DNA from: an uncultured archaeon
GTDB lineage: Archaea > Iainarchaeota > Iainarchaeia > Iainarchaeales > CAZILS01
Direction: 5' to 3'
NCBI GenBank assembly: GCA_964540145.1
Contig: CAZILS010000004.1
Span: 605-64,604 of the forward strand
Length of the DNA stretch: 64,000 nt
Positions 2,564 to 55,042 of this stretch are shown piece by piece (the stretch's first letter is position 1; each line of letters opens with the position of its first letter). Both the position numbers and the translations under genes were made by a program. The notes beneath the pieces are model-generated. The model saw nothing but the letters and a program-made list of their open reading frames with translations, made no database searches and was not told the DNA's origin.

Positions 2564-2964
2564 TTTATTTTCACCTTGTATGCTTTTTCTGCTTCTGTTG
2601 AATCCAACAATTTATCCGTCTCTTTTTTATCTTCTATTTTGGCCTTCATTATCCAACTTCCGTAAGGGTCTTTATTGATTTTTGAAGGCTCGTCAAACAA
2701 AGAATCGTTCACTTCTATGATTTCTCCGCTAACCGGGCTTGAAAGGTGACCCGACCATTTCACAGCCTCAAGGGAAACATATGTTTCTCCGGCTTTCAGC
2801 TTTTTTCCTTTCTCCGGCAACTTAATAAACACAAATTCCTTGACTTTTTTTGCCGCAGGCTCTGTAATGCCAACGGTTGCCGTGTCTTCATCAAATTTTA
2901 TCCAAGAATAATCATTGTTGTATTTCAGATTACTCGGTAATTTGTATTCACTCATTTTTTTCAC
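2560..2964 (-). CDS. Glycine-cleavage H-like lipoyl carrier protein (GcvH/LbpA-like)
   Basis: 134 aa with a GcvH fold signature and a probable lipoyl-Lys in SLEAVKWSGHLSSPVSGEIIEVN. No gcvP, gcvT or lpd genes are nearby. Confidence 0.7.
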   Translation of the reverse strand: MKKMSEYKLPSNLKYNNDYSWIKFDEDTATVGITEPAAKKVKEFVFIKLPEKGKKLKAGETYVSLEAVKWSGHLSSPVSGEIIEVNDSLFDEPSKINKDPYGSWIMKAKIEDKKETDKLLDSTEAEKAYKVKIK

Positions 2965-4621
2965 CCCTGTTTTTTTTCTTAGTTATTTTTGTGACAACAA
3001 TGATGGTTCCCGCAATAATTACTGCTGTTGCCATTAGCCCAAATGAAATAAATATGTTGTTGAGCAATGCGGGGTCTATCAAGAGTATTGAACCAAGGCA
3101 AAGCATCATTGTTCCCGATATCAGCTTTAAAACCCGCCCTTGCCATTCAGAGAGCTTTTTGGCGCCCAAAGTAATCACGAACATTAGCACGATTATGAGC
3201 AAAGGAATTACATACACCAAATTGTATAGTGCCAAATAAAGATAGTATTCTGTTGACGGTATGTTGTTAAGGGTTAAAATTCTTGTAAAAACCATTGGAA
3301 ACCCCGCGGTGCACAAAAGTTCATAGCTGTTGGCCGCAATGGCTAATACAATAGTGCCTGCCATCATTGAAGTAAGGGATGTGGCTTTAAGCAAATTTCT
3401 CATTTTTTGGAACAATTTTGGCTTTGCGCTCTCAGGGATTACTAATGAAATTCCTTTTTCAAAGAAAAAGAAATCCTTGACATTGATTAATCCAACAACC
3501 AATGCGATTGCCCCCGCAATTGTTGTGACCAGCATGATTTCGCCTATTAAAAGGAAAAGATTTAACCAGGCCGCCATGAACAAAAAGTACATTAAAGCAG
3601 AAACAAACACAAAAGTAAACCCAATCAAAAGCATTCTTTTCCTGCTTTTAGCGTATATCAGCATGCTTAAAAGGAAAAAAAGGATAAAAAAAGCGCAGGG
3701 GTTAAAGCTATCGAGCCCCGCGATTATTATTGTAAATAATGGCAAAGGCATATTTTCAGTGTCAATCTTGCCAAGCACAGGCAACTCAACAACAGTGCTT
3801 TCTTCAGGAGTAATGTCTTTTGGTTGAGGCGGGTATGGAGTAATGCCATTGATTTTACTTGCCGGGCAAACACAACCGGCGTCCTCGCACTTGGTTATTT
3901 CTGAATCAAGATTCTCCAAAATCGCGGTTTCCCCGGCCAAATATTTATTGCCTATAAAAACTATCGGAAATCCGGCGTCAGAAAGCGAATAGATTTCCTT
4001 AAACTGCGAGTATAATTCTTTTTCACCCTCATCGGAAACATCGTGTATTTTTAATTCAATGTCTTGCCGGGCATTTAAAGAGCCTATATAAGGAAGAACC
4101 GAATTGCACTGCGGGCAGTCTCCGATGATAAAAACATGAATGCAGGGAACCTCTTTTGAGGGGGCCGGAAGCGGATTATCTGTCGGGTTATCTTTTGCCA
4201 GCATATCTCCCGGGCTTGCGCATTGGTTTTCAATGCAGGATTTGATTTTGTCTTCCATTTCTTTTGCCATGTGGTCTGCATAGCCAATCCAGTACTTGTC
4301 CCCAATGAATGTTGTTGGAACCCCCTGCGCCGTTGTGCCGTAAGCTTTTGCGACTTCGTCGAATAGTTTTGCGTTTTCCGGGTTTTTCCAGGTTTCGAAT
4401 ATTTTTATTTCTATCTCCGGATACTTCTTCTGCATTTCTTCAAGGAATGGTTTTTCGGCAGCACAGTGAGGGCACCCGTCGCCCCAAAAGAAATAAACTG
4501 TTACCTTATCAGAATCTGTTTGAGCCAGTGCTGGCTGAGCCAGTGCTGGCGAAGCCAACATAAGCGCCAATAAAACCAGAAACAATAGTCGCCCTGCATT
4601 TTTTAAGCCATTCATTTTCAT
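2948..4621 (-). CDS. Fusion protein: signal peptide + two thioredoxin domains (CPHC, CPQC) + CcdA/DsbD-beta-like transmembrane domain
   Basis: 557 aa. Domain 1 is a WGDGCPHC Trx. Domain 2 is IGDCPQC. The C-terminal TM domain carries the GLDSFNPC motif and a second conserved Cys, as in CcdA. Confidence 0.8.
   Translation of the reverse strand: MKMNGLKNAGRLLFLVLLALMLASPALAQPALAQTDSDKVTVYFFWGDGCPHCAAEKPFLEEMQKKYPEIEIKIFETWKNPENAKLFDEVAKAYGTTAQGVPTTFIGDKYWIGYADHMAKEMEDKIKSCIENQCASPGDMLAKDNPTDNPLPAPSKEVPCIHVFIIGDCPQCNSVLPYIGSLNARQDIELKIHDVSDEGEKELYSQFKEIYSLSDAGFPIVFIGNKYLAGETAILENLDSEITKCEDAGCVCPASKINGITPYPPQPKDITPEESTVVELPVLGKIDTENMPLPLFTIIIAGLDSFNPCAFFILFFLLSMLIYAKSRKRMLLIGFTFVFVSALMYFLFMAAWLNLFLLIGEIMLVTTIAGAIALVVGLINVKDFFFFEKGISLVIPESAKPKLFQKMRNLLKATSLTSMMAGTIVLAIAANSYELLCTAGFPMVFTRILTLNNIPSTEYYLYLALYNLVYVIPLLIIVLMFVITLGAKKLSEWQGRVLKLISGTMMLCLGSILLIDPALLNNIFISFGLMATAVIIAGTIIVVTKITKKKNRGEKNE
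4230..4507. repeat. 278-bp exact direct duplication (copy 2)
   Basis: Identical to 2160..2437. Confidence 0.9.
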
Positions 4622-9555: not shown

Positions 9556-9672
9556 CCATTAAATACTGTTCATCGACTATTTATTTGTGCGGTTTGCGGG
9601 CCTTCCCGAGGCAAGATGGCATATTGCCGGCAGGCTGCCGGTAAAAGCACGCTGCGCACAGAATGTGTTTTG

Positions 9673-9756
9673 GCAGGGGTTCCCGAGCGGTCAAAGGGGC
9701 TAGGTTTAGGGCCTAGTGGTTTAGTGCCTTCGGCGGTTCGAATCCGCCCCCCTGCA
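9673..9756 (+). tRNA. tRNA-Leu (anticodon UAG), type II with long variable arm
   Basis: Acceptor GCAGGGG/CCCCTGC+A, anticodon stem CTAGG/CCTAG, loop TTTAGGG, T-arm GGCGG-TTCGAAT-CCGCC. Confidence 0.8.
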
Positions 9757-9820
9757 CAACTTTTTTCCAAAAAGTTGACAAAAATCAGGAGTTGACAAAA
9801 ATCAGGGTGCGAGCCCCATC
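9739..9820 (+). repeat. 82-bp direct repeat copy 1 (tRNA-Leu 3' end + hairpin CAACTTTTTTCCAAAAAGTTG + 2x GTTGACAAAAATCAGG)
   Basis: Near-identical to 9887..9968, with 2 mismatches. Confidence 0.85.
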
Positions 9821-9886
9821 AAGGCGAGCTCGGTCTATACGGAGCAGAGCGAAGTATAGACCACGTACCAGGCGGACGTGTCGCCT

Positions 9887-9968
9887 TTCGAATCCGCCCC
9901 CCTGCACAACTTTTTTCCAAAAAGTTGACAAAAATCAGGAGTTGGCAAAAATCAGGTTGCGAGCCTAA
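9887..9968 (+). repeat. 82-bp direct repeat copy 2 (orphan tRNA-Leu 3'-terminal 21 nt + trailer)
   Basis: No matching 5' acceptor strand upstream. It is preceded by a perfect 9-bp hairpin GGTCTATAC...GTATAGACC (9835..9869). Confidence 0.85.
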
Positions 9969-10106
9969 TTGAGGCGTTGATTCAAAGGGCAACATACTCT
10001 GTTTCAGCAAGGAAGGCGTAAAAAGGATCGGTTAACCCCGGCCGGAGATTTGTTCCAAAACCCTTATATACCCAAAAAGCCAATAATTGTGAGTTAATTC
10101 AAAAAG

Positions 10107-11579: not shown

Positions 11580-11651
11580 GGGCTCGTGGTCTAGTGGTAT
11601 GACGCCGCCTTCACACGGCGGAGACCGGCGGTTCAATTCCGCCCGGGCCCA
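11580..11651 (+). tRNA. tRNA-Val (anticodon CAC)
   Basis: GGGCTCG acceptor, anticodon loop TTCACAC, T-arm GGCGG-TTCAATT-CCGCC, CGGGCCC+A 3' end. Confidence 0.85.
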
Positions 11652-14662: not shown

Positions 14663-15958
14663 TCAGTCCGTGAAGGCGGTTGCGGTAACGCCCCCGTCCC
14701 AGGAAAGCCTCGGCCTTATTTTGACCATCCATATTTTTTCCGTGTTGTCGTCTATAATAAGCGCAAACCCCTTTGCGTTGGGCATCTCCGCATAGTACTT
14801 GTCCAAATCCTGGTGTAGGTAACTTGGTCTCAATGCCCCCACCGCCTCTATGTCCGGCTTTGCAGTCATCCTGTGCGAGATGAAAAGGTCGCACTGCGAA
14901 ATACAGTCGGGATGAAGCCTGTTCGGCCTTTGCGTTGCCAGCACTAAGGACAGGCCGGGCTGCCTTCCGACCCTCACCCACTCGAGCAGGACAGACAGCG
15001 CTATGTTCTCCTCGTCTTTCGGCATGAACATGTGCGCCTCATCGATAAACATCCAGATAATCGGCATCGAACTCTTCCTTCCTTCTCCCTTCATCAGCTT
15101 TACTTCTTCTTCTTTCCTGAAGAGCATTCTCTCCTCAAACAATTTCTTCCCGAGCAAAGCAACTATGATGTCCCTTGTTCCTTCCATGCCAATCGCTTGC
15201 CGGTAGGCGGAAACATCAATAACGGTAATAGCGCCGGGCTTCGCAATCTCCGACATCCTAGTGCCCTCCTTCTCAAGAAGCCCCCAGGTCTTTGCAACAT
15301 TAAGCCTGTTGATAAGCGCCTTCTTCGCAAGCTCCTCGGCTTCGGTATCGGCCTTGACCGCGGCTATGATGTCATCAATACCATAATAGGTTCCCAGTTT
15401 TTCCTTCACACTTGTAATTACCCTTGTGAGCAGCACCCCTTCAGGGTCTTTCCATGTGAGCTTGAACATCGCAAGCCATTCGGTATCGTCAAGCTCGGAT
15501 GTCTTTATCGTAAATGCGCCATCGACAGGCAGCTCCTTCTCCTTGTAGAAATCGAGCTTTCCCTTAGGAACCATAACCCTTACATCGGTTTTCCCGGGCT
15601 CCAAGTCCCATTTCTCAAGCTCCTCCTTGTCCAGCTTGTTCGCAACCTTCAGTGTCCAGAAAATTCCCACAGTGTCTATTGCTATGACGGAAAGCCTTTC
15701 CTTGATTTCGGGGGGCTGCCTCGCAAACTCCTCAAGGACAACGCTCATAGTGTACGATTTTCCGCCTCCGCGCTTGCCGCAGATAAGCATAACGTGCGGC
15801 ATCGTGACATCACTTAGAATCTTCCTCCCGAGGACAGGCCTCTCCCCGGAACTCATCACCACCTTTCCCAAATAGGCGGTTCCCCGCTCGCCGTATTTTT
15901 CGATGTCGCCCAAAGAGCGCCCTATTATGGATTTTTTTTCGCTGATGTCGAGGGCCAT
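14663..15958 (-). CDS. HerA/FtsK-like P-loop ATPase (DUF87 family)
   Basis: Walker A GKRGGGKSYT, Walker B MFIDEAHMF and an LATQRPNRL arginine-finger region. The N-terminal domain is short for HerA, and there is no NurA partner nearby. Confidence 0.65.
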   Translation of the reverse strand: MALDISEKKSIIGRSLGDIEKYGERGTAYLGKVVMSSGERPVLGRKILSDVTMPHVMLICGKRGGGKSYTMSVVLEEFARQPPEIKERLSVIAIDTVGIFWTLKVANKLDKEELEKWDLEPGKTDVRVMVPKGKLDFYKEKELPVDGAFTIKTSELDDTEWLAMFKLTWKDPEGVLLTRVITSVKEKLGTYYGIDDIIAAVKADTEAEELAKKALINRLNVAKTWGLLEKEGTRMSEIAKPGAITVIDVSAYRQAIGMEGTRDIIVALLGKKLFEERMLFRKEEEVKLMKGEGRKSSMPIIWMFIDEAHMFMPKDEENIALSVLLEWVRVGRQPGLSLVLATQRPNRLHPDCISQCDLFISHRMTAKPDIEAVGALRPSYLHQDLDKYYAEMPNAKGFALIIDDNTEKIWMVKIRPRLSWDGGVTATAFTD

Positions 15959-25313: not shown

Positions 25314-25926
25314 CCATGGAATCGGTTATCCCAAGCTTTTTTAATGTTGGGAAATGGGCCCTTATTTTTCCCGTGCCAATATCCGAAACCCAGCCGTAAA
25401 CAGAAATATGTTTGGGGATTTTTTTCAGGTAGAACTTCTTGAGGTTATGCACCTGCAAAAGGACATTCGCCTCGACAATCGCTTTCCACATGGTTTCCTC
25501 ACTCAACGAAAGGTCAATTTTCCTTTTTTTCAGCAGGCCCTCAACCTTCCCCAGAATCCACTTGGAATTTGAGACCCATTTCTTCACAGGCTTGCTCCTG
25601 ATTTTCTTAAGTTCCAGAAGGGCTTTCATGCCGCCGCAGCCGTAGTGCCCGCAGACAACAATGTCCAAAGGCGAGAAATGGGAGATAGCATACTCTATTG
25701 CCGAACCCACAGCATAGTCATTCGAAACTATGTTCGCAACATTCCTTAGCACAAACAGCTCGCCGGGCTTCGCATTAACCAATTTCTCGGGAACAACCCT
25801 TGAATCGGAGCAGCCTATCCACAACACCCTTGGATTTTGCCCTTTGGAAAGCTTGTGGTAAAACGCATCCTGCTGCAATACCTCTTCCTTGTAAGCCTTG
25901 TTTCCCATGAAAAGCTTCTTCACCAT
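25264..25926 (-). CDS. Beta-class carbonic anhydrase
   Basis: CSDSR and HYGCGG zinc-ligand motifs. Confidence 0.8.
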   Translation of the reverse strand: MVKKLFMGNKAYKEEVLQQDAFYHKLSKGQNPRVLWIGCSDSRVVPEKLVNAKPGELFVLRNVANIVSNDYAVGSAIEYAISHFSPLDIVVCGHYGCGGMKALLELKKIRSKPVKKWVSNSKWILGKVEGLLKKRKIDLSLSEETMWKAIVEANVLLQVHNLKKFYLKKIPKHISVYGWVSDIGTGKIRAHFPTLKKLGITDSMVAELKLKPLGRGEFGW

Positions 25927-28778
25927 TGTTTCGCCTTCTCCCCAAGCTCTATGAAAAAATGCCTGTCAAGTAACTTCTCCATATTGCCTTTTTTATCTTT
26001 TATCCTTGAGTTTGTGTCCTTCTCAATTTCTTTCGCAAACTTCTTAATGAACGCAGGGTCGCTGCATCCCAAAAACAGCTCAACCCTGTCATTGGGGTTA
26101 AGTTTTGCCTCTTTCCTCATGGCCTGCACCTTCCTTGTAAGTTCCCTCAGCTCCCACTCGTCTTTCAAACCCTCAGAATCAATATTCAAATGGACCTTAA
26201 CATTGCCTACTTCCTTCACGGCGTAATTCCCCCCGGAAGGGGCTTTCTTCATTTCACTCGCTTCCTTGACATTAATCATCTTCGCAAGCACCCCTTTCAG
26301 CGAGGCAAGTTCCTTTCCCGACCCGCTCTCGACAACAACTCCCTTAAGCGGCCACCTAAGCCTCAGCCTGTTCTCTTCCCTCATGGAAAGCAGGGCTTGT
26401 GCGGAAGCCTGTACAACCGCCATCTCCTTCTCAAGCCGGCTATTCGGCATTTTTTTATCCTGTTCAGGAAGCTCCAGCAGATGCACGCTCTCTTCCATGC
26501 CCCTTGTCCTGTAGCCCCGGTAAACATACTCGGAAATGTGGGGGGTCACAGGCGCAAGCAATTTGACAAGCTCCATAAGCGCAATATTCAGGGTTTTCTT
26601 CGCAGCCTTCTCTGTCTTGGTTCCAACCCTGTCCTTGACGAGTTTTATGTAGGTCCTGCTTAAATCCTCCATAACAAACTGCTCAATGCCCTGCCGTATC
26701 TTCGGATAATGGTATTTGTTATACGCTTCCCTGCACTCGCCGATAACCCTGTTAAGCCGGCTCAATAACCATTTATCTTCCGGCTCAAGCTTAACCTTCT
26801 CCTTCACAATGCCGGGGTCCAAGCCCAGGTAAAGCTCTATGTAGTTGTAGGTGTTCCAGAAGATATTGAAAAACCTATGGACATCTCTGAAAGCGCCCCA
26901 GTCGAACATTATGTCCTCGCCCTTGCTCTCCCCGGAAAGGTAAAATCTTAAGTAATCACGGCTGTACTTTTCGATAACCTCAAACGGCGTAACAATATTC
27001 CCCAAGCTTTTTGACATCTTCTTCTTGCCCATATCGAGGATGGTGCTGTGCATCATCACCGCCTTGAACGGCTTCTCATCAAAGCATATCGCCGAGGTTA
27101 TTAGCTGCGAATTCCACCAGCCCCTTATCTGGTCCTTTGCCTCGATGTTCAAATCAGCGGGCCAGAATTTCTTGAACAGCCCGCCGTTTCCGGGATAGCC
27201 TAAACTCGCCCAGGAGCTTGCGCCCGAATCAAACCAGACATCAAGCACCTCGGGAACCCTTTTCATTGCGCCCTTGCACTTTCCGCAGGGAAAAATAACC
27301 TCATCTATGTAGGGCTTGTGCAAATCCAAACCTTTGGGAATCGCCGCAAGTTTTTCTAACTCTTTCCTCGATGCAACAACCTTCCTCTCGCCGCAGCCGC
27401 AGACCCAAATAGGCAAGGGGGTTCCCCAATACCTCTGCCTTGAGACAGGCCAGTCCCCCAGGCTCTCAAGCCAATTTTTGAACCTATCTTTCGACCATGA
27501 AGGTATCCACGTAACCTCCTTGTTAAGCTCAATCAGCCTCTTCCTTATCTTCGTTATCCTGAAAAACCATTGAGGGGTTGCGACCATAAGCAGAGGACTT
27601 TTACAACGCCAGCAAATCGGATAGTCGTGTGTGTAAGGGTGCCTGTAAACAACCGCATTGTCTTTTTCCAAATCTTCAATTATCTCCTTGTCAATTTCCC
27701 TCGCTATGCCCCCCCTGTATTTTCCCGCTGCTTCGTTCAGGCTCCCGTTTATTTCGACAGGGCAAACTATGGGAAGGCCTGCCTTGCTCCCTGCATCAAA
27801 GTCCTCCTTCCCGTGGCCGGGCGCGGTATGCACCAACCCTGTCCCCTCCTCAAGGTTCACATAGCGCTCGCTCATTATAACCCTGTAAGCGCCCTTCAAT
27901 TCCCCTAATTTCAAATTCTTCGCAAGCGGGTTTATATACTCCTTCCCTTCAAGCTCTTTTCCCTTGAATTCCCTTTTCACAAGGAAGCCCGCCTCTATGG
28001 AATCCATCAGGTGCCGCACCCTTTCCTTGGCGAGAATCCAGGTTTCTTCCCCTGCCTCAACCTCGACGTAATCAAATTTCGGGTGTGCCATTATCCCCAT
28101 ATTCCCCGGCAAGGTCCATGGCGTTGTTGTCCAGATTATGAAAAACTTCCCTTCCTCCCCTTTCAGGGGGAATTTAACATACACAGAATTGTCCGTCTGC
28201 TTCCTGTACTCAATCTCATTGTACGCAACCGCGGTAGCGCACCTTGGGCATACGTGGACAGGGTACTTTCCCAAGTAGAGCAAACCTTTCTCCTCTGCTT
28301 TCTTGAAGGTCCACCACAGCCCCTCTATGTAGCTGTTGTCAAGGGTGAGGTAAGGATTCTCCCAGTCCATCCAAACCCCCAAGTTTTCAAACTCGTCGTT
28401 CATGAACTCGATGTGTTCTGTCGCGAATTTCCTGCATTCCTTCACAAATTTCTCAATGCCAAACGTTTCTATCTCGGACTTGCACTTGATGTTGAATTTT
28501 TGCTCGACCTTGTTCTCAATCGGCAAACCATGGGTGTCATAGCCCGGTTGGTCCCGGGCATCAAGGCCCTGCATTCTCTTGGAGCGAATCGCAATATCCT
28601 TCAAAATTTTGTTCAGGGCGGTTCCCATATGGATGTGCCCGGAGGCATACGGCGGGCCGTCCATGAAATAGAAGCTCTTCTTTCCTCTGTTGAGCGCCCT
28701 TGCCTTCTTCGGAATGCCCTTGTCTTTCCAGAACTTCCTTACTCCTTCTTCCTTCTCTCTTGAATACGGCTCCAGCAT
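25920..28778 (-). CDS. ileS: Isoleucyl-tRNA synthetase
   Basis: HIGH motif (HMGTALNKI) and KMSKS motif (KMSKSLGN); about 950 aa. The start is set at the ATG at 28778 (MLEPYSREK...), because the longer ORF (to 28997) would run through the adjacent tRNA sequences. Confidence 0.9.
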   Translation of the reverse strand: MLEPYSREKEEGVRKFWKDKGIPKKARALNRGKKSFYFMDGPPYASGHIHMGTALNKILKDIAIRSKRMQGLDARDQPGYDTHGLPIENKVEQKFNIKCKSEIETFGIEKFVKECRKFATEHIEFMNDEFENLGVWMDWENPYLTLDNSYIEGLWWTFKKAEEKGLLYLGKYPVHVCPRCATAVAYNEIEYRKQTDNSVYVKFPLKGEEGKFFIIWTTTPWTLPGNMGIMAHPKFDYVEVEAGEETWILAKERVRHLMDSIEAGFLVKREFKGKELEGKEYINPLAKNLKLGELKGAYRVIMSERYVNLEEGTGLVHTAPGHGKEDFDAGSKAGLPIVCPVEINGSLNEAAGKYRGGIAREIDKEIIEDLEKDNAVVYRHPYTHDYPICWRCKSPLLMVATPQWFFRITKIRKRLIELNKEVTWIPSWSKDRFKNWLESLGDWPVSRQRYWGTPLPIWVCGCGERKVVASRKELEKLAAIPKGLDLHKPYIDEVIFPCGKCKGAMKRVPEVLDVWFDSGASSWASLGYPGNGGLFKKFWPADLNIEAKDQIRGWWNSQLITSAICFDEKPFKAVMMHSTILDMGKKKMSKSLGNIVTPFEVIEKYSRDYLRFYLSGESKGEDIMFDWGAFRDVHRFFNIFWNTYNYIELYLGLDPGIVKEKVKLEPEDKWLLSRLNRVIGECREAYNKYHYPKIRQGIEQFVMEDLSRTYIKLVKDRVGTKTEKAAKKTLNIALMELVKLLAPVTPHISEYVYRGYRTRGMEESVHLLELPEQDKKMPNSRLEKEMAVVQASAQALLSMREENRLRLRWPLKGVVVESGSGKELASLKGVLAKMINVKEASEMKKAPSGGNYAVKEVGNVKVHLNIDSEGLKDEWELRELTRKVQAMRKEAKLNPNDRVELFLGCSDPAFIKKFAKEIEKDTNSRIKDKKGNMEKLLDRHFFIELGEKAKQW

Positions 28779-28855
28779 TTGAAACAACCTTAGTTTGATT
28801 TTTGCCTTAGCAAAAATCCTTTCTTTTGTAAACTTTTCTTTTCGAAAGAAAAGTT

Positions 28856-28950
28856 TGGGCGTAGGAGGATTTGAACGCCAACGGGTGGTTGGCGTCATCC
28901 TGCCATACTGCGTATGGCAGTTCCGCCTTGCGGCGGCCTCCCGTTGCCTT
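28856..28950 (-). other. tRNA-like fragment: orphan copy of tRNA-Ile 3'-terminal 21 nt preceded by two hairpins
   Basis: TTCAAATCCTCCTACGCCCA is duplicated from tRNA-Ile. Upstream (in the transcribed sense) is a perfect 9-bp hairpin CTGCCATAC-GCA-GTATGGCAG and a second hairpin ACGCCAAC-CACCC-GTTGGCGT. There is no matching 5' acceptor strand or T-stem, so it cannot fold as a complete tRNA. Confidence 0.6.
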
Positions 28951-29025
28951 TGGGCGTAGGAGGATTTGAACCTCCGACCCTTGGTGTATAAGACCAATGC
29001 TCTGCCAGGCTAAGCTATACGCCCC
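28951..29025 (-). tRNA. tRNA-Ile (anticodon UAU)
   Basis: Reverse complement GGGGCGTATAGCTTAGCCTGGCAGAGCATTGGTCTTATACACCAAGGGTCGGAGGTTCAAATCCTCCTACGCCCA: acceptor GGGGCGT/ACGCCC+A, anticodon stem TTGGT/ACCAA, loop CTTATAC giving anticodon TAT. Confidence 0.75.
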
Positions 29026-29120
29026 AAAACGCATTCTGTGTGCGGCATGCGTTTACAAGCCCCAATAAGCTCGTTATATAGAAACTATTATAGAACTTTT
29101 AAATAGGTAACTAAATCAGG

Positions 29121-38390: not shown

Positions 38391-38503
38391 GCTAAGAATT
38401 AGGAGGAAATTATATTTAAGTTTAGCACCTGTTTGCGAGTCCTTTTGGGACGAGCCAATCCCATACGCAGTATGGGATGCACTTATCGCGGGCATTGCGA
38501 TTG

Positions 38504-38717
38504 CCCTCAGTCCGCCCTCAAGCCGGTTTCGTCCGGCTGCACCGAGATATGTGTCCCACTTCATTTCATTCAGTGGGACGGTAATATTCCGCAATCAAAA
38601 GTACCCTCAGTCCGCCCTCAAGCCGGTTTCGTCCGGCTGCACCGAGATATGTGTCCCACTTCATTTCATTCAGTGGGACGGTAATATTCCGCAATCAAAA
38701 GTACCCTCAGTCCGCCC
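38504..38717. repeat. 100-bp tandem repeat, 2.14 copies, each unit containing two hairpins
   Basis: 38504..38603 is identical to 38604..38703, followed by a partial third unit. Hairpins AGCCGG-TTTCGT-CCGGCT and GTCCCACT-TCATTTCATTC-AGTGGGAC. Confidence 0.9.
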
Positions 38718-38774
38718 ATCTGTCGTCATCGGGGTGAATAGCCCCTCGGTTCATCGTCAGGTCATCATCGGGCA
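38717..38774 (+). repeat. 58-bp perfect direct repeat, left copy, flanking the AbiE-like cassette
   Basis: CATCTGTCGTCATCGGGGTGAATAGCCCCTCGGTTCATCGTCAGGTCATCATCGGGCA, identical to 40450..40507. Confidence 0.9.
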
Positions 38775-38908
38775 CACCTATAGATGACGTAACAAAATAT
38801 ATGTATTGTGTAACTAAGAAGTGTCAGGAATAGCCGGCTTGCATTTATAAATAAGCCAAATTAGGCATATATGCCTACTATTTATAAATACTTTGACTTA
38901 GTCATATA

Positions 38909-39595
38909 TTGGTAGTCTTAATGGCCAGAACCAAAAAAAAGCGCATGTTTGCCCTTTTGCTTGACCCTGCATATAAACCAACCAGCAAATATGCCCTTGC
39001 AAAAGAAGCAGGCTGCGATTCCTCCTGGGCAATAAAACTGATAAAACAGCTTGAAAACAAGGGCATTGTAAAAAATCTTGTTGTGGAGGACGCCAAAGGC
39101 CTGTTCCGGTTATTCCACAAGTTCCACCCCAAAAAAACAACTTCCAGGAGTTATTCCATCTACTCGTTTGGCGATGTGGACAAACTGATTGGCTTATTCA
39201 AAAAATCCAACAAAGAATACGCCTTTACTACTTATATGGCGGAGAACCTCGTGCAAAAGCATTTGTTCTGCCACCGGGTTGAGGCTTACATAAAGAAAGA
39301 CGATTTGGACGAATGGCACAAGCAGTTAACTGCGATAGGAACTTACGGCGGCGGCAACGTAAGGATTATTGTTTCTTCCAATGACGAGCTTTTCAATAAG
39401 AAAAGGATATCTGACACAGTAGTTGGCCGGAAATTTTTTAGTGCGAAGAAGCCCGAACGCAAAAAAGAAAGCGAAGGCCCGTGGGTAGTTAATATCCCTC
39501 AATTGATTTCTGATTTGTATGCCGAGAGCGGGCCTGCTGCCGAAGCTGCCGACCTGCTTCTGGAAAAACTCGTGAAATCATTGAAGGAGAGATAG
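38909..39595 (+). CDS. AbiEi-like winged-HTH protein (putative type IV antitoxin/transcriptional regulator)
   Basis: N-terminal wHTH (SKYALAKEAGCDSSWAIKLIKQLENKGIV); 228 aa; translationally coupled to a DUF1814-type nucleotidyltransferase. Confidence 0.5.
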   Translation: MVVLMARTKKKRMFALLLDPAYKPTSKYALAKEAGCDSSWAIKLIKQLENKGIVKNLVVEDAKGLFRLFHKFHPKKTTSRSYSIYSFGDVDKLIGLFKKSNKEYAFTTYMAENLVQKHLFCHRVEAYIKKDDLDEWHKQLTAIGTYGGGNVRIIVSSNDELFNKKRISDTVVGRKFFSAKKPERKKESEGPWVVNIPQLISDLYAESGPAAEAADLLLEKLVKSLKER

Positions 39596-40389
39596 TGATG
39601 TATGATGAGAGAGAAACCAAGCGGTCTTACGAGTACCTGCAAAAGGTGCTTTCTGTTTTGGAAGAGCCCATATGCCTGCTTGGTGGCTGGGCAATATTCC
39701 TGACTGTCAATAAGCCCTACAGGGCCAACGTTGGCAGGGATTATTTGGGTTCAAGGGACATTGATTTGGGATTTCATCTGGAGGAAGGAAAGAGTTTTTC
39801 GAAATCGGCTTTTGCCCATTCAATGAAAAAGCTTGAAGAAGAAGGCTTCAGGGAAGTTGGCGGTAGAATGGTAAAGGAGCTTGATTTTGAAACAGGCAAA
39901 GAACTCTCAAAAGTGGAAGCGCAAGCAAAGCCACCATTTGATATCCACAAAATGTTCGTTGACCTCATGGCGGACCACGCCCCAGAATTCGTCGATGAGA
40001 AAAACCACAAATTGCTTCTTGACGAAACGCTCCTTGAATGTGTTTTTGCAAATAGGGAAAACCGTACCGAGCTTGGAGAGTTCAACAAAAAACTCTGGCT
40101 GCCAAAACCTTGGCTTTTGCTGGCGATGAAAACCAAGTCCCTGCCCGGAAGGCAAAAAGAGGACAAGCGGAAAAAGGATATTGCCGACATTGCCGCACTC
40201 CTTCTTTTTGCCGGGCCGGAAAGTGCCCCCTTGAGAATGCTTGAAGTGTTGAGAAAAGACAAAATACTCCGAAGCTTGAAAGGAATTTCGCAGGCAGAAA
40301 TAAACGAAGCTGAATCATTGCTTGGCGTTCAGCTAAATTCTTTCAGAGCCGCACTGGCCGAAACTATCAACCAGATAGAACAAACTTAA
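39595..40389 (+). CDS. AbiEii/DUF1814-like nucleotidyltransferase (putative toxin)
   Basis: LGGWAIFL...GSRDIDLGF matches the KGGTAL...R(F)SEDIDF Pol-beta-type nucleotidyltransferase motif of AbiEii-family proteins. Confidence 0.55.
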   Translation: MMYDERETKRSYEYLQKVLSVLEEPICLLGGWAIFLTVNKPYRANVGRDYLGSRDIDLGFHLEEGKSFSKSAFAHSMKKLEEEGFREVGGRMVKELDFETGKELSKVEAQAKPPFDIHKMFVDLMADHAPEFVDEKNHKLLLDETLLECVFANRENRTELGEFNKKLWLPKPWLLLAMKTKSLPGRQKEDKRKKDIADIAALLLFAGPESAPLRMLEVLRKDKILRSLKGISQAEINEAESLLGVQLNSFRAALAETINQIEQT

Positions 40390-40449
40390 AAGGCAAAATA
40401 AAGAAAATTTTGTTATTTCAAGAATAAAACTTGTGTGGATTATCCTGTT

Positions 40450-40507
40450 CATCTGTCGTCATCGGGGTGAATAGCCCCTCGGTTCATCGTCAGGTCATCA
40501 TCGGGCA
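40450..40507 (+). repeat. 58-bp perfect direct repeat, right copy
   Basis: Identical to 38717..38774. Confidence 0.9.
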
Positions 40508-46097: not shown

Positions 46098-46210
46098 ACT
46101 ATCGGGGAGATATAGGCTTTTCAGGTATTTAAATATACCCTAAAGAAAAAAGAAAAAGGTTTCCCCCCGCGCCCTTGCGGAAGGAGGGGGCAACGAAACT
46201 AAACTTTGCC

Positions 46211-46687
46211 TTATGCGCAGTCGCCGACAAGCGGCTTTGCGCCAATCTGCTTCAGCCCCGATATCTTCTGGGTGTCGTAGTTGATATTGACATCAAGGCT
46301 GTATGGCTGTCCCGCGCTGCATGTGAACCCCGTCAGCGCAACCACTGTCTTGGTCTCGCCTGCGGTGAACTCAAGGTTAGCCGAACCTGTATTGAAGTCC
46401 CCGCTGCTGGTGTTTATGTCCTGCAGGGTTATCTTCTTGCTGGTCATGTTCTGTATCGCGAATTCCGCATCAGTTGCTCCTGTAGAGGTAACCTTCCAGT
46501 CCACAATTGCGAACGGATATGTGCCCTCCCAGTAGGCCCTGCTCTGCGCAGCGGTTATCCCGGTGCCAACGCCCGGCATCCAGCCCATGACCCCGACAAC
46601 AACCAATGCAATAACAATGATAACCGCGAGGATTATCAGGTATTCGGTTGCGCCCTGGCCCTTTGAATTGATTTCCATCTTTAGCAT
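46211..46687 (-). CDS. Type IV pilin (major pilin candidate), copy 1 of identical tandem pair
   Basis: MLKMEINSKGQGATEYLIILAVIIVIALVVVGV; 158 aa; identical to 46831..47307. Confidence 0.8.
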   Translation of the reverse strand: MLKMEINSKGQGATEYLIILAVIIVIALVVVGVMGWMPGVGTGITAAQSRAYWEGTYPFAIVDWKVTSTGATDAEFAIQNMTSKKITLQDINTSSGDFNTGSANLEFTAGETKTVVALTGFTCSAGQPYSLDVNINYDTQKISGLKQIGAKPLVGDCA

Positions 46688-46830
46688 CCCTCCTTTGGTT
46701 ATTTAATCTAAAAAGGGTGTTTAAACTACTATATAAAGCTGTTCTTTGAAAGCTGCTTTAAACCGAAAAAGAAAAAGGTTTCCCCCCCGCTCCCTTGCGG
46801 GAGGAGGAGGCAACGAAACTAAACTTTGCC

Positions 46831-47307
46831 TTATGCGCAGTCGCCGACAAGCGGCTTTGCGCCAATCTGCTTCAGCCCCGATATCTTCTGGGTGTCGTAG
46901 TTGATATTGACATCAAGGCTGTATGGCTGTCCCGCGCTGCATGTGAACCCCGTCAGCGCAACCACTGTCTTGGTCTCGCCTGCGGTGAACTCAAGGTTAG
47001 CCGAACCTGTATTGAAGTCCCCGCTGCTGGTGTTTATGTCCTGCAGGGTTATCTTCTTGCTGGTCATGTTCTGTATCGCGAATTCCGCATCAGTTGCTCC
47101 TGTAGAGGTAACCTTCCAGTCCACAATTGCGAACGGATATGTGCCCTCCCAGTAGGCCCTGCTCTGCGCAGCGGTTATCCCGGTGCCAACGCCCGGCATC
47201 CAGCCCATGACCCCGACAACAACCAATGCAATAACAATGATAACCGCGAGGATTATCAGGTATTCGGTTGCGCCCTGGCCCTTTGAATTGATTTCCATCT
47301 TTAGCAT
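46831..47307 (-). CDS. Type IV pilin (major pilin candidate), copy 2
   Basis: Protein identical to copy 1. Confidence 0.8.
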   Translation of the reverse strand: MLKMEINSKGQGATEYLIILAVIIVIALVVVGVMGWMPGVGTGITAAQSRAYWEGTYPFAIVDWKVTSTGATDAEFAIQNMTSKKITLQDINTSSGDFNTGSANLEFTAGETKTVVALTGFTCSAGQPYSLDVNINYDTQKISGLKQIGAKPLVGDCA

Positions 47308-47396
47308 CCCTCCTTTGGTTATTTAATTGGAGTATTGTTGTTTTTCAAGGTATATAAACCTTGTGCATATGGCATTTCTCAATCCCTTTCTCGGCA

Positions 47397-48467
47397 TTAT
47401 ATCACGAAGAATCCTGAAAGGACAACCCTTGCGATGAAGAACATTATTATGGAGGCTATCGCCATTGCGGGGGTGTATTTCACGCCGAGCAACGGCTTTC
47501 CCGTGTTTAGCACCCCCATAAACATGCTCGCAAGTATCGCATTCCCCATGAGCAGGGCATAGGCGATGACATAAACATCCTCCGAGGTTATGGAGAGCTC
47601 GCTTCCCAGAAACCCCACAGAAGTTCCGGCAGTGCCACCCACAACAGGGTTTTGCGCCTGTATCTCCGAAATCATATCAAGGAACTGTATGGAAATCGAG
47701 AGCAACATCGGCGCCCCAATAACGACGACAAACGCGACAAACATCACATACATCCTTGTGCTCGAGTACAGCTCCTCTTTCATCTCCTGGGTTTGCCTCA
47801 AATCAAAGGCAGTTGTTTCGAGAAGCTTGGAAAGTTTCCCCCCTGAACGCATAGCCTGCGAGAAGAACCATATGGTCTCTTTCAGCACCCGTGAGTTCAG
47901 CCTGTTCGACAGTTCCTTAAGCGCCTGGCTGAATGACTGCGTTCCCAATGATTTCGAGGTCGCGATTTTTATCTCTTCGCTAAGGGGGCCGAACTCCTTC
48001 CTTGCGGCGTTCCTGAATGCCGAGAAAGGGGTCATTCCCGCATTGATGTGGCTCGCAACCAAAAGGAGAAAATCCGGGAGTATCTCCTCGACAAACCGTG
48101 TCCTGCCCTCAATCATGTAGTAGAGGTGTAGATAAACCGCACCAAGCACAATTGCCATGAAAACAGGGGCCATCACAACCGAGAACAAGGCGGGCATAAC
48201 AAGGGGCTGCAGGGAGACTATGCCGAGGGGGTCCAGCGAGATTATGTCAGCCAGCCCGAAAGGAAGCAGCCCAAAATATTTCGGCAGCGTCCAGGGAATA
48301 AGGAATCCTATAACCCCGAAAAGCAGGGCAAGCAGCATCTTTTTCCCTACCCAAAAATCATAGTCCTCGGAAATCCCCCCGAAGCGGAGCTGCCTGTAAA
48401 TAAAATCCTTTCTCCCCCCCTCCGCAAGGGCCTTCTCCGCTATGCTCTTGCTTATTCTTTCGTACAT
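47397..48467 (-). CDS. FlaJ/TadC-like pilus assembly membrane protein (T2SS-F domain)
   Basis: 356-aa polytopic protein with a T2SSF-type cytoplasmic domain. Confidence 0.7.
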   Translation of the reverse strand: MYERISKSIAEKALAEGGRKDFIYRQLRFGGISEDYDFWVGKKMLLALLFGVIGFLIPWTLPKYFGLLPFGLADIISLDPLGIVSLQPLVMPALFSVVMAPVFMAIVLGAVYLHLYYMIEGRTRFVEEILPDFLLLVASHINAGMTPFSAFRNAARKEFGPLSEEIKIATSKSLGTQSFSQALKELSNRLNSRVLKETIWFFSQAMRSGGKLSKLLETTAFDLRQTQEMKEELYSSTRMYVMFVAFVVVIGAPMLLSISIQFLDMISEIQAQNPVVGGTAGTSVGFLGSELSITSEDVYVIAYALLMGNAILASMFMGVLNTGKPLLGVKYTPAMAIASIIMFFIARVVLSGFFVI

Positions 48468-52579: not shown

Positions 52580-53082
52580 TCGCTCACCCCCACCCTCACC
52601 ACAACGCTGCTGCCGTTGTAGTACGCAGGTCTTGCGACAGTAACGACCGTTGCGTTCCCGTCCCCGTCGGTGCCGAACTTCGCAGCCTGCTGCCCCCCCT
52701 GAAGGTAATTTATCGTGATTCCCACATTGTATCTCCCCGCCCCGAAAAGCCCCTTTGCGTCGGAATAGCTTGAATTCAGGTCCACGAGCCTCGCCAGCTT
52801 GTCCCCGTCGATAACCGACCTTTCCTGTACAAGCCCTATCGAGTTGATGTCGTCGATGCTCGCCAGGTATTCCCAGTTGGCCGGGGACCCTTTACTGTAG
52901 AGCAGCTGGTTGCTTGCCCTAAGTGCCGCTTCTTTCATATCATAGTCCTTCTCTGCATTGTTGAGGCTGTTCTGGAGCGCAGTCGCATAGACTATGCTCA
53001 CCGTGACAAGCCCGACAAATACCGTGAAGGCGACGACCGCATCGGTGCTGAACATTTGCCCCTTACTATTCAACGCCCTCAA
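52576..53082 (-). CDS. Minor pilin-like protein (SKGQ|MFSTDAVVAF)
   Basis: Class III signal with Q+1. Confidence 0.6.
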   Translation of the reverse strand: MRALNSKGQMFSTDAVVAFTVFVGLVTVSIVYATALQNSLNNAEKDYDMKEAALRASNQLLYSKGSPANWEYLASIDDINSIGLVQERSVIDGDKLARLVDLNSSYSDAKGLFGAGRYNVGITINYLQGGQQAAKFGTDGDGNATVVTVARPAYYNGSSVVVRVGVSE

Positions 53083-55042
53083 CCCTTACTTTTTCCCCTA
53101 AATTGGTGGCCTTGAAAATCCTCGGGTTTTCGAGGAGTTCCCATATGCACCCCCCCTGTAACTGGCACTCCGCCTGGAGTATGAGCCCTATGCAGCTTGT
53201 GCAGCTCCCCTGGCAGTCGGGCGGTGTCCATGAACAACCGTCCTGCCCCCCGCAACTCCCCTCGGTGCCGAAGGTCCCGCATCCTGTACAGCCCCCGTAA
53301 CAGTCCGCCAAGTCCCAAGAACATCCGTCCTGCCCCTCGCACGTGCCCTGTGCACCATATGTATCGCATGCGGTACAGCCCCCGTAACAGTCCGCCAAGT
53401 CCCAAGAACATCCGTCCTGCCCCTCGCACGTGCCTTGGCTACCGTAGCTTGTGCATCCTGTGCATGTGCCGTTGCAGTCCTCATCCCAGCCACACCCGTC
53501 CTGCCCCTCGCACGTGCCTTGGCTTCCGTAGGTGCTGCAGGCAGTGGGCGAGCCTGCACACTCATCAGGGTTCCACAGGCACCCGTCCTGCCCCTCACAC
53601 GTGCCCTGTGCACCATATGTATCGCATGCGGTACAGCCCCCGTAACAGTCCGCCAAGTCCCAAGAACATCCGTCCTGCCCCTCACACGTGCCCTGTGCAC
53701 CATATGTATCGCATGCGGTACAGCCCCCGTAACAGTCCGCCAAGTCCCAAGAACATCCGTCCTGCCCCTCGCACGTGCCCTGTGCACCATATGTATCACA
53801 GCCTGTTTCCGTGCCGTAGCAGTTCTCGGGATCCCAGGTGCATCCCGAGTCCTCGCATTCCCCCTGCCCCCCGTCATGTGCCGAGCAGGCGTGCGGTTCC
53901 CCCGAACACCACCATATAATGAACCATGTTGCTGTACAGCCGTGCGCTTCGCATGTTGCCTGGTCGCCTATATATGTTGTGCAGGGGTCATGCGTGCCCT
54001 CGCAGTTCGCAAGGTCCCAAGAACACTCGTCCTGCCCCTCGCAGTTCCCCTGTGCACCATATGTATCACAGGTTGTTGCCGTGCCCTCGCAGTTCGCAAG
54101 GTCCCAAGAACACTCGTCCTGCCCCTCGCACGTGCCTTGCGCACCATATGTATCGCATGCGGTACAGCTCCCATAGCAGTCCTCCTCATCCCATGCACAC
54201 CCCCCCTGCCCCTCGCAGTTCCCCTGCGCACCGTAAGTCGTGCAGTCCGTGCATGCTCCTGCGCAGTCCTCCTCATCCCATGCACACCCCCCCTGCCCCT
54301 CGCAGTTAGGCTGGCTTGCGTAGTTGTTGCAGTCGTTACAGCTCCCATAGCAGTCCTCCTCATCCCATGCACACCCCCCCTGCCCCTCGCAGTTCCCCTG
54401 CGCACCGTAAGTCGTGCAGTCCGTGCATGCTCCTGCGCAGTCCTCCTCATCCCATGCACACCCCCCCTGCCCCTCGCAGTTAGGCTGGCTTGCGTAGTTG
54501 TTGCAGTCGTTACAGCTCCCATAGCAGTCCTCCTCATCCCATGCACACCCCCCCTGCCCCTCGCACGTGCCCTGCGCACCGTAGGCATCACAGGCGGTAC
54601 AGCTACCTGCGCACCCGCCTCCTCCCCATAAACATCCCGACTGGGCATTGCAGTCGATTTCCGTGCCGAATGAGCCGCATTCTGTGCAGCTCCCTTGGCA
54701 GGTCGTGCTGTCGATGAGCTCGGCGTTCTTTGTCAGCAACGGCATGTCAAGGAAATTGCCCCTCCATGAAACTTCGACAGTATTGTCGGCTATATCGACG
54801 TTATAGTCCTCGCCGAGCCTCCCGACATTTATGGTTGCCTCCGCCCCCGTCCCTCCCAGCCAGACATTGTTTATCCCCCTTGCAACCTCTGACGCGATTT
54901 CCTTCGCCTCCAGGACCTCTCTCGCATAGATATAACCTTCCGTCCTCTCCCCGTATGTGAAGACCGCGAACGACAGCACTATGAAAAGCGCCACCACCAC
55001 AACAATGAACTCCATGCTCGCCTGCCCTTTTTTCCCACCCAT
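53066..55042 (-). CDS. Pilin-like protein with about 17 tandem cysteine-rich repeats (consensus roughly C-T-A-C-D-T-Y-G-A-Q-G-T-C-E-G-Q-D-G-C-S-W-D-L-A-D-C-Y-G-G)
   Basis: Class III signal peptide MGGKKGQ|ASMEFIVVVVALF, then a roughly 550-aa repeat array with 5 Cys per roughly 29 aa (about 90 Cys in total). The underlying DNA is near-identical 87/174-bp repeats, and that DNA repetition is why both strands throw up many ORFs here. Confidence 0.8.
   Translation of the reverse strand: MGGKKGQASMEFIVVVVALFIVLSFAVFTYGERTEGYIYAREVLEAKEIASEVARGINNVWLGGTGAEATINVGRLGEDYNVDIADNTVEVSWRGNFLDMPLLTKNAELIDSTTCQGSCTECGSFGTEIDCNAQSGCLWGGGGCAGSCTACDAYGAQGTCEGQGGCAWDEEDCYGSCNDCNNYASQPNCEGQGGCAWDEEDCAGACTDCTTYGAQGNCEGQGGCAWDEEDCYGSCNDCNNYASQPNCEGQGGCAWDEEDCAGACTDCTTYGAQGNCEGQGGCAWDEEDCYGSCTACDTYGAQGTCEGQDECSWDLANCEGTATTCDTYGAQGNCEGQDECSWDLANCEGTHDPCTTYIGDQATCEAHGCTATWFIIWWCSGEPHACSAHDGGQGECEDSGCTWDPENCYGTETGCDTYGAQGTCEGQDGCSWDLADCYGGCTACDTYGAQGTCEGQDGCSWDLADCYGGCTACDTYGAQGTCEGQDGCLWNPDECAGSPTACSTYGSQGTCEGQDGCGWDEDCNGTCTGCTSYGSQGTCEGQDGCSWDLADCYGGCTACDTYGAQGTCEGQDGCSWDLADCYGGCTGCGTFGTEGSCGGQDGCSWTPPDCQGSCTSCIGLILQAECQLQGGCIWELLENPRIFKATNLGEKVRVEGVE

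Follow-up and report, generated by a model that had tools for sequence, protein, structure and literature searches.

We analyzed a 64,000-nt stretch of DNA from an uncultured archaeon of the Iainarchaeota (GenBank assembly GCA_964540145.1, contig CAZILS010000004.1, positions 605 to 64,604 of the forward strand; the whole stretch is referred to as the window), in which an orphan copy of the 3' end of tRNA-Leu is fused to a hairpin module that we named E. E is a conserved, covarying, unannotated module that is absent from Rfam. As an object, the orphan is of an ordinary kind, namely a tRNA 3' end duplicated at a tRNA that is prone to recombination, but the element fused to it is not ordinary: orphan tRNA 3' ends are usually filed as integration scars, whereas the partner here is a conserved element with compensatory base changes. 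Our preferred reading, to which we assign a probability of roughly 0.4, is that the orphan is a by-product of att-like recombination at a fixed site in the T-loop that kept the tRNA gene intact, and that E is its conserved, possibly functional or selfish, partner.

The tRNA-Leu locus and the E element

Three tRNA genes were called in the window by ARAGORN, namely tRNA-Leu(UAG) at 9673-9757 (plus strand), tRNA-Val(CAC) at 11580-11651 (plus strand), and tRNA-Ile(UAU) at 28951-29024 (minus strand). The features of the tRNA-Leu locus are listed below.

9640-9672, plus strand: 33-nt block directly upstream of tRNA-Leu, GTAAAAGCACGCTGCGCACAGAATGTGTTTTG, about 85% identical to a block 5' of tRNA-Ile (29025-29057, minus strand)
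9673-9757, plus strand: complete tRNA-Leu(UAG), called by ARAGORN (tag anticodon), with an orthologue in a related contig (L057)
9737-9826, plus strand: first copy of the Leu repeat, with tRNA nt 54-73, a T-rich hairpin (9757-9777), two 16-mers (9774-9789 and 9791-9806), and the first ~20 nt of E
9808-9889, plus strand: E, consisting of UGCGAG-hairpin 1-CGAGC, hairpin 2 (9832-9862), hairpin 3 (9870-9886), and 1-2 U, followed by the orphan
9887-9907, plus strand: orphan, the last 21 nt of tRNA-Leu (T-loop, 3' strand of the T-stem, 3' acceptor strand, and A73)
9887-9976, plus strand: second copy of the Leu repeat, with the orphan, a T-rich hairpin (9907-9927), two 16-mers (9924-9939 and 9941-9956), and a truncated 5' part of E (~9958-9976)

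An Rfam pass over the whole window at gathering thresholds missed tRNA-Leu, and its score of 49.3 bits against the Rfam tRNA model comes from a local scan. Neither ARAGORN nor the local Rfam scan called a tRNA on the second copy. The initial annotation of this DNA had noted a second copy of the tRNA 3' end in an 82-bp direct repeat displaced by 148 bp; the copy and the repeat were both recovered, with a length of 90 nt and a start-to-start period of 150 nt (9737-9826 versus 9887-9976; 84/90 positions, or 93%, identical). The repeat opens at T54 of the tRNA, carries its last 21 nt, and extends 70 nt past the end of the gene. Its first 58 nt are exact (9737-9794 = 9887-9944), and all six mismatches fall within the last 32 nt; by our own arithmetic, six randomly placed changes would do so with a probability of (32/90)^6, or ~0.002. 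Microhomology at the junctions, as read from the sequence, is only 1-2 nt. After 9976, the sequence is unrelated as far as the conserved promoter region of the downstream CNNM transporter gene (~10046).

The elements of the Leu unit follow one another in the order T-rich terminator-like hairpin (CAACTTTTTTCCAAAAAGTTG), two AAAAATC-containing 16-mers, E, 21 nt of tRNA, and again a terminator-like hairpin, after which a second, truncated unit begins. The 16-mer GTTGACAAAAATCAGG is present twice in each repeat copy and thus four times in the window, and none of 100 shuffles attained the five matches found. Its AAAAATC resembles the promoter box of the isoleucyl-tRNA synthetase gene ileS, and the same box lies ~20 nt before the ileS start codon both in the window and in a related genome (L072). 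With a promoter-like box and a T6 terminator, the Leu unit looks, from its layout, like a self-contained small transcription unit.

The 33-nt block upstream of tRNA-Leu belongs to a stretch of ~46 nt that is inserted here by comparison with the orthologous locus in L057. An 18-nt pattern derived from it occurs in the window only at tRNA-Leu and tRNA-Ile, with none of 100 shuffles giving at least two sites, and the block was not found 5' of tRNA-Val. It has a two-hairpin layout of its own, and may serve both genes as a promoter or leader or be a further variant of the E-type element.

The perfect 9-bp hairpin and the GGCGG...CGCC element that the initial annotation had described in the spacer are both present, the latter as a GGCG..CGCC hairpin, and belong to E. 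In the Leu copy, hairpin 2 has 9 bp (GGTCTATAC..GTATAGACC) and the loop GGAGCAGAGCGAA, and hairpin 3 (GGCG..CGCC) has 5 bp and the 7-nt loop GACGUGU. A sequence of ~80 nt that is clearly homologous to the Leu copy stands directly 5' of an intron-containing tRNA-Ile gene in a related genome (L064, 2752-2832), where the loop of hairpin 2 is GAAGCGGAGCGGA and that of hairpin 3 is GAUGUGG. The plan common to these two copies is UGCGAG, a small variable hairpin, and CGAGC; a 9-bp stem closed by a 13-nt loop; ACCAG; a 5-bp stem closed by a 7-nt loop; 1-2 U; and then tRNA sequence. Across copies, we define the family by UGCGAG..CGAGC, one hairpin of 8-9 bp, another of 5-7 bp whose loop has ~7 nt, and a 3' end set against a stable-RNA boundary, all of which are found at 9808-9889 in the window.

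A covariance model (R1) was built from a seed of two sequences, the window Leu and L064 copies, and a hand-written structure. It gave new matches at L069/L070:1241-1316 (E-value 9.6e-6), at 38434-38503 of the window (7.7e-6), and at L072:9835-9906 on the minus strand (0.007). A second model (R2), built from five copies, matched L069:1389-1438 on the minus strand, a site on which it had not been trained, with an E-value of 2.5e-5. The Leu copy scores 104 bits with R1 and 89 bits with R2. Together, the covariance models identified six confident copies of E, in the window and in three other Diapherotrites-like genomes.

In the five-sequence alignment, which was fitted to the model and therefore favours pairing, 100% of the stem cells pair and 13 of the 14 pairs carry changes on both sides; the compensatory changes are also legible in the raw sequences. 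None of 500 shuffles reached the observed values, and sliding the pairing partners lowered each measure at least 5-fold. Three stem cells are G-U on the strand that matches the adjacent RNA gene. The Leu copy and the L064 copy are 72% identical by global alignment (83% mean column identity by MAFFT). For comparison, the tRNA-Ile genes of the two genomes are 80% identical and their isoleucyl-tRNA synthetases (IleRS) 63% identical, and the IleRS of the L064 and L069 hosts are 59% identical. Because E and tRNA-Ile have diverged to such similar degrees between hosts whose IleRS are ~60% identical, we conclude that E is old and about as constrained as a tRNA.

At permissive thresholds, Rfam gave only tRNA, a weak C/D signal, and sub-threshold noise (E-values up to 10) for the three window loci and L072. 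The leader pattern CACAGAATGYGTTTTGG had 51 single matches among 185,579 GTDB genomes, all of them bacterial and no more numerous than a rough chance expectation. The pattern of the hairpin 2 loop had two matches in IMG/VR, which lacked the stems, did not lie beside a tRNA, and were judged to be due to chance. A loose two-hairpin descriptor returned mostly noise and was specific only for the long-loop class. A 21-nt match to the 5' end of E (UGCGAGCCACAUCAAUGCGGG) at 48033-48057 (minus strand), inside a T2SSF gene, scores ~10 bits and is probably a chance match.

E copies at tRNA-Ile and at a candidate C/D-box small RNA

As the initial annotation had proposed, the same layout recurs at tRNA-Ile, here with a 23-nt repeat (28854-28876 and 28949-28971) whose copies lie 95 bp apart. 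No comparable repeat was found at the tRNA-Val locus.

28951-29024, minus strand: complete tRNA-Ile(UAU), upstream of ileS (25920-28778, minus strand)
28873-28943, minus strand: degenerate copy of E between tRNA-Ile and the orphan, a weak member of the family, with hairpin 2 CUGCCAUAC-GCA-GUAUGGCAG
28854-28876, minus strand: orphan, comprising the 3'-terminal 21 nt of tRNA-Ile and 2 further nt, with a T-rich hairpin and the promoter region of ileS after it; an independent assembly has the identical sequence

The Ile copy of E is a full-length R1 hit in a local search (10.2 bits, E-value 0.0025 in 331 nt), and R2 matches its hairpin 2 only. It lacks the UGCGAG and CGAGC motifs and the long loop, and shares an exact 15-nt core, CCATACGCAGTATGG, with the copy at 38434. 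Inverted termini, GGCAACGGG and CCCGTTGGC, match at 8 of 9 positions at the ends of the Ile insert and are not present at the other loci. Related genomes preserve the gene order thermosome - kinase - OB-fold - tRNA-Ile - ileS; its OB-fold - tRNA-Ile - ileS part holds in most of those fetched (L062-L064, L068, L069, L076, and L077), where the tRNA frequently has long introns. In the window, the Ile copy of E sits at the orthologous place, between the OB-fold gene and ileS.

The suggestion of a repeat family was borne out beyond the tRNAs, at a candidate C/D-box small RNA (sRNA) gene in the window, and the spacer element is conserved in other genomes as well.

38434-38503, plus strand: copy of E of the short-loop type, abutting the reverse complement of the sRNA 3' end (R1 E-value 7.7e-6, untrained; R2 61.7 bits)
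38504-38717, minus strand: two perfect 100-nt units (Y' + X'), a tandem repeat with a 100% match
38704-38772, minus strand: C/D-box sRNA candidate of 69 nt, CCC-GAUGAUGA-12 nt-CCGA-hairpin-GAUGACGA-12 nt-CUGA-GGG
40450-40505, minus strand: copy of sRNA nt 1-56, which together with the intact gene flanks a 1.7-kb segment of two unassigned open reading frames (ORFs)

All boxes of the sRNA candidate (C, D', C', and D), the 12-nt spacings, and the CCC/GGG stem can be read in the sequence, and the best Rfam scores are 20.2 bits for sR2 (threshold 42) and 16 bits for sR1. On the minus strand, the intergenic region 38392-38908 has the order sRNA - (Y'-X') - (Y'-X') - reverse complement of E. Here X' denotes the 3'-terminal 14 nt of the sRNA, with copies at 38504-38517, 38604-38617, and 38704-38717 by the partition of a self-BLAST. 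Y' is an E-like module with an 8-bp hairpin (loop GAAUGAAAUGA), CAG, a 5-bp hairpin (loop ACGAAA), and CU, and its two hairpins were matched weakly, as separate model hits. The breakpoint common to all sRNA fragments is nt 56 (nt 56-69 in the two 3' fragments and nt 1-56 in the 5' fragment). The two units at 38.5 kb are identical to each other and therefore recent rather than conserved. The 1.7-kb segment (38776-40449) lies between 56-58-nt direct repeats of the sRNA gene; its ORFs (38909-39595 and 39595-40389) had no family in Pfam, PHROGs, PADLOC, NCBIfam, or PDB sequences, and the first of them gives a faint winged-helix-like signal.

Every copy of E ends 0-5 nt from a stable-RNA boundary, which is the 5' end of tRNA-Ile, the 3' end of a convergent RNA gene, or a 3' fragment. 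Three arrangements were observed: E on the same strand before the 5' end of a complete tRNA-Ile (L064, L069); E before a duplicate, on its own strand, of the 3' end of the RNA gene that lies upstream (tRNA-Leu and tRNA-Ile in the window); and E convergent into the 3' end of an RNA gene, so that the reverse complement of that end comes next (tRNA-Ile in L069 and L072; window 38434). In L069, two inward-pointing modules stand on either side of tRNA-Ile (E->[tRNA]<-E). In L072, E lies on the 3' side of tRNA-Ile, and a hairpin on the 5' side has a loop, GAACAAAGUGAA, close to the hairpin 2 loop of L069, GAACGAAGUGAA, with a weak model match of 4.7 bits. The copies in L064, L069, and L072 have no flanking duplication, and the tRNA-Ile genes of L063 and L068 have neither E nor a duplicate. 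In the window, the layout of an E-like module joined to the gene's own 3' fragment is thus found at three RNA genes (tRNA-Leu, tRNA-Ile, and the C/D-box sRNA candidate), and the intact copies of all three are preceded by other sequence, not by E or Y'.

These arrangements bear on another idea of the initial annotation, that the orphan could be a split or intron-bearing tRNA half. It would then be a trans-spliced 3' piece, perhaps serving other Leu or Ile isoacceptors with a shared 3' end. The DPANN tRNA-Leu isoacceptors CAA, UAA, and UAG do share this exact 20-nt 3' end: among JGI metagenomes it occurs at eight loci, with one copy each, and five of the eight are DPANN tRNA-Leu genes with these anticodons, some with introns. 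The promoter-like and terminator-like signals of the unit would also suit a free-standing piece. However, each orphan has an intact tRNA with that 3' end 150 bp (Leu) or 95 bp (Ile) upstream, and the window holds no orphan 5' fragment of either tRNA that could serve as the complementary half. The stems of the leader pair locally and stop 1-2 nt before the fragment, leaving no free complementary stretch for a bulge-helix-bulge; by inspection, there is no such motif at the junctions and no consistent complementarity across copies between the 5' motifs of E and the 3' strand of the orphan. In addition, this leader is also found before complete tRNAs, and a C/D-box sRNA candidate, which is no tRNA, shows the same layout. 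To our knowledge, no published split tRNA breaks in the T-loop at 53/54. We therefore reject a split tRNA, which seems most improbable, and do not regard the locus as a new split-tRNA position.

An assembly artefact, in the form of a collapsed or mis-joined repeat or a strain-variant bubble, has to be considered for a metagenome-assembled contig. In one related scaffold, an N-gap is followed by a second tRNA-Ile 3' end with a variant trailer (L076:5735-5800), neither of which has a counterpart in a second assembly (L077:430-470). In the window, on the other hand, the two Leu copies differ at six sites, and the Logan assembly of SRR7048224, made independently of the deposited contig, agrees with it at every base of the Ile locus. 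At the Leu locus, one Logan contig stops at window position 9766 and the next begins at 9915, both points lying 30 nt in from an edge of the exact 58-nt repeat. These are exactly the ends that a true repeat with two ways in and two ways out would produce in a de Bruijn graph, and we consider an artefact hardly credible. A Logan contig of the L064 species (L065) begins at the boundary between E and tRNA-Ile and retains only the last 2 nt of E, which may reflect variants with and without E.

Origin of the orphan 3' ends

The genes flanking the two tRNA loci encode the CNNM transporter and isoleucyl-tRNA synthetase, whose best named relatives belong to 'Candidatus Diapherotrites' and other DPANN archaea. 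One relative (JGI metagenome 3300004210) shares 80% identity in CNNM and 62% in a 187-aa neighbour gene, for which it was the only source of a homologue found. Its contig L057 carries the orthologous tRNA-Leu beside the same neighbour gene, with no downstream duplicate and no ~46-nt upstream block, followed by a PAS sensor gene. On its contig L052, CNNM is preceded by the C-terminus of a histidine kinase and a response regulator. None of these genes is present in the window, where only 283 nt separate tRNA-Leu from CNNM. Since the downstream genes differ and homology to L052 resumes only at ~10046, tRNA-Leu marks a break in gene order; for the same reason, L057 does not offer a clean comparison of an occupied with an empty site. 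In a gene for a HerA/DUF87-like ATPase (864 aa), the relative also carries a LAGLIDADG-domain intein (insert L052:7378-8674); the orthologue in the window (431 aa, 14663-15958) is without this ~1.3-kb insert, the site of which is at ~15757-15760.

Both tRNA duplicates start at 53/54, the junction of T-stem and T-loop, and take in the discriminator. An origin by integration-like recombination is suggested by these fixed internal breakpoints (T-loop 53/54; nt 56 in the sRNA), by the duplication of 3' ends beside intact genes, by the breakpoints that fragments share, and by the break in gene order. Under this reading, a short DNA segment would have been joined at the T-loop start of the tRNA gene, and the 3' end of the gene from the T-loop onward would be present on both sides of the joined segment, so that the tRNA stays intact. 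E would be the sequence adjoining the recombination core. The junctions would be products of site-specific, att-like recombination, and E would be transcribed and would be the selected part, functional or selfish, with an orphan that has no function of its own. At 38434-38603, the arrangement E->[X']<-Y' places a core between inward-pointing E-like modules, as would be expected by analogy with a P-O-P' junction, and the E-like modules around the whole tRNA-Ile in L069 and L072 have the same inward orientation. Integrases that target the T-loop have an identity core overlapping the T-loop and the tRNA 3' end, as in mycobacteriophage Ms6 (PMC1762012). The 'class II' sublocation of such att blocks (PMC1762012) resembles our case in that the repeat runs from the T-stem/T-loop junction to the tRNA 3' end, the tRNA remains intact, a close relative lacks the repeat, and the tRNA coincides with a break in gene order.

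An att-like scar, which the initial annotation had listed among its explanations, is thus partly supported, by the breakpoints, by the close relative, and by gene order, but several observations weigh against it. The 25 window ORFs scanned with Pfam and the 13 genes with precomputed annotation include no integrase, transposase, or other gene of a mobile element, and no element body is present. IMG/VR had no exact match to the Leu or Ile 3' end, and BLAST gave no match in phage or plasmid collections; few DPANN elements are represented in any of these collections. Only 60-129 nt separate the repeat copies, and the Leu repeat runs 70 nt beyond the tRNA, unlike a simple att core. The orphan adjoins a covarying hairpin element that doubles as a tRNA leader: in L064 and L069, E looks like a native leader of tRNA-Ile rather than the arm of a mobile element, with no second tRNA copy in the fetched flanks, and a C/D-box sRNA candidate is also hit. 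The stem covariation and the three sense-strand G-U cells point to selection on the structure of RNA (or single-stranded DNA), which a decayed att arm would not explain. Finally, the lineage is very thinly sampled, and the comparison relies on one relative.

The main rival for the origin is a tandem duplication of a unit composed of promoter box, E leader, tRNA, and terminator, followed by decay in which the second copy lost its first 53 nt and the third everything after hairpin 1, so that the orphan is a 5'-truncated pseudogene. That full-length tRNA-Ile genes of other genomes have E as their 5' leader, and that the Ile copy of the window occupies the orthologous place, would follow naturally. 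The Leu locus is periodic (150 nt), each period having a terminator hairpin and promoter-like 16-mers and a third, truncated E coming next, and the 100-nt units at 38.5 kb indicate that such duplication is active in this genome. However, this scenario requires that, at three separate loci, exactly the part between RNA position +1 and a fixed internal point was deleted, which is improbable by chance; the intact genes, moreover, are preceded by sequence other than E or Y', and the junctions offer little microhomology. We regard duplication with decay as rather unlikely. Simple tandem duplication was rejected in view of the periodicities of 90/150 nt (Leu) and 23/95 nt (Ile), with two full units only at 38504-38717.

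A functional interpretation is compatible with either origin. In this interpretation, E together with the 3' fragment would be a small RNA in which E is a scaffold for protein binding or processing and the tRNA 3' end a mimic or a processing or termination tag. The tRNA end might serve as a decoy or attract tRNase Z or the CCA-adding enzyme, and the D-box end might play the same role for the sRNA. E has been conserved about as well as the adjacent tRNA, with strong covariation, and the layout occurs at three RNA genes. The spacer and orphan fold more stably than shuffled controls (z = -5.95 at Ile and -2.85 at Leu), and in the predicted folds the 3' strand of the orphan pairs with sequence 5' of E. 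The signals of the Leu unit fit a transcript, and the orphan, terminator, and first 16-mer are identical at 58/58 positions, with all changes in the 32 nt that follow. Against this, the unit is absent from the only close relative, the Ile copy has lost both sequence motifs and the long loop, the third Leu unit is truncated, and the two units at 38.5 kb are identical and so recent. Elsewhere, E precedes whole tRNAs or antisense tRNA ends, and the 3' fragment is therefore not a constant partner. Overall, a functional chimera of E and the fragment strikes us as doubtful. A tRNA-linked small-RNA element nevertheless comes closest to the data among the readings of the initial annotation, although its transcription is something that we infer.

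Two groups of mobile elements were also rejected. For miniature inverted-repeat or classical transposons, the duplications vary (14, 23, and 90 nt), there are no consistent terminal inverted repeats, and E in L064, L069, and L072 lacks a flanking duplication. For IS200/IS605-type ends, integron attC sites, rolling-circle origins, or casposon duplications as models of E, the duplication length is variable, there is no transposase, and no target motif is conserved.

Known systems and other repeats of the window

Partial tRNA 3' duplicates beside intact tRNAs are known from Sulfolobus, where 'gene capture', reportedly described by She and colleagues in 2001, is said to leave orphan tRNA fragments behind integrative plasmids and viruses. 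The resemblance includes several events per gene and an explanation of the fragments as integration footprints. The Sulfolobus fragments, however, border halves of integrase genes and kilobases of element DNA, in contrast to the tiny structured non-coding module found here.

Target-site duplications of the casposon/CRISPR-repeat type also occur at tRNA 3' ends. The 14-nt duplication at the sRNA 3' end and the tandem arrays that share the duplicated segment are similar. The lengths of 14, 23, and 90 nt are not, and we found no terminal inverted repeats apart from the 8/9 match at Ile and no Cas1-like gene among the scanned ORFs.

Split and tri-split tRNA genes are known from Nanoarchaeum equitans and Caldivirga maquilingensis. 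They share with the window loci a free-standing 3' piece that has its own upstream sequence and can be used by several isoacceptors. They differ from these loci, which have an intact gene, no complementary leader and trailer or bulge-helix-bulge, a break in the T-loop, and a leader that also stands before complete tRNAs.

Other small RNAs are matured by way of an adjacent tRNA, such as the tRNA-snoRNA dicistrons and the tRNA-like element that lies 5' of haloarchaeal 5S rRNA and is cut by tRNase Z. In these cases too, a structured RNA stands against a tRNA boundary, so that its end would be set by RNase P or tRNase Z. The model suits E in the arrangement before a tRNA 5' end and in the convergent arrangement, since an antisense tRNA also forms a cloverleaf, whereas E joined to a 3' fragment gives no obvious substrate for RNase P or tRNase Z.

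A broader possibility, to which we give a low probability, is that E represents an undescribed class of structured RNA modules tied to the termini of stable-RNA genes in Iainarchaeota/Diapherotrites, as a mobile homing element or a small RNA whose ends are made by the tRNA machinery, with the chimeras acting as functional mimics of RNA 3' ends. If E is mobile, it would be an element of very small size whose targets, stable-RNA genes, survive its insertion, and it would explain breaks in gene order at tRNAs in these reduced genomes. If it is matured by RNase P or tRNase Z, it would represent a new family of archaeal small RNAs and show tRNA boundaries being used in a new way. Model R2, combined with the predicted position against RNA-gene ends, can be applied to any Iainarchaeota genome or metatranscriptome.

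The window contains three further repeats. An exact 278-nt direct repeat (2160-2437 and 4230-4507, 2070 nt apart) overlaps an ORF at 2108-2563 and a thioredoxin/glutaredoxin-like ORF at 2948-4621. An exact 519-nt direct repeat (46189-46707 and 46809-47327, 620 nt apart) lies at two plus-strand ORFs of 163 aa (46175-46666 and 46795-47286) and adjoins type II/IV secretion genes (T2SSF, T2SSE). A long array of 87-nt (29-codon) tandem repeats at 53286-54565, within an ORF of 658 aa (53066-55042, minus strand), lies in the most G+C-rich part of the window.

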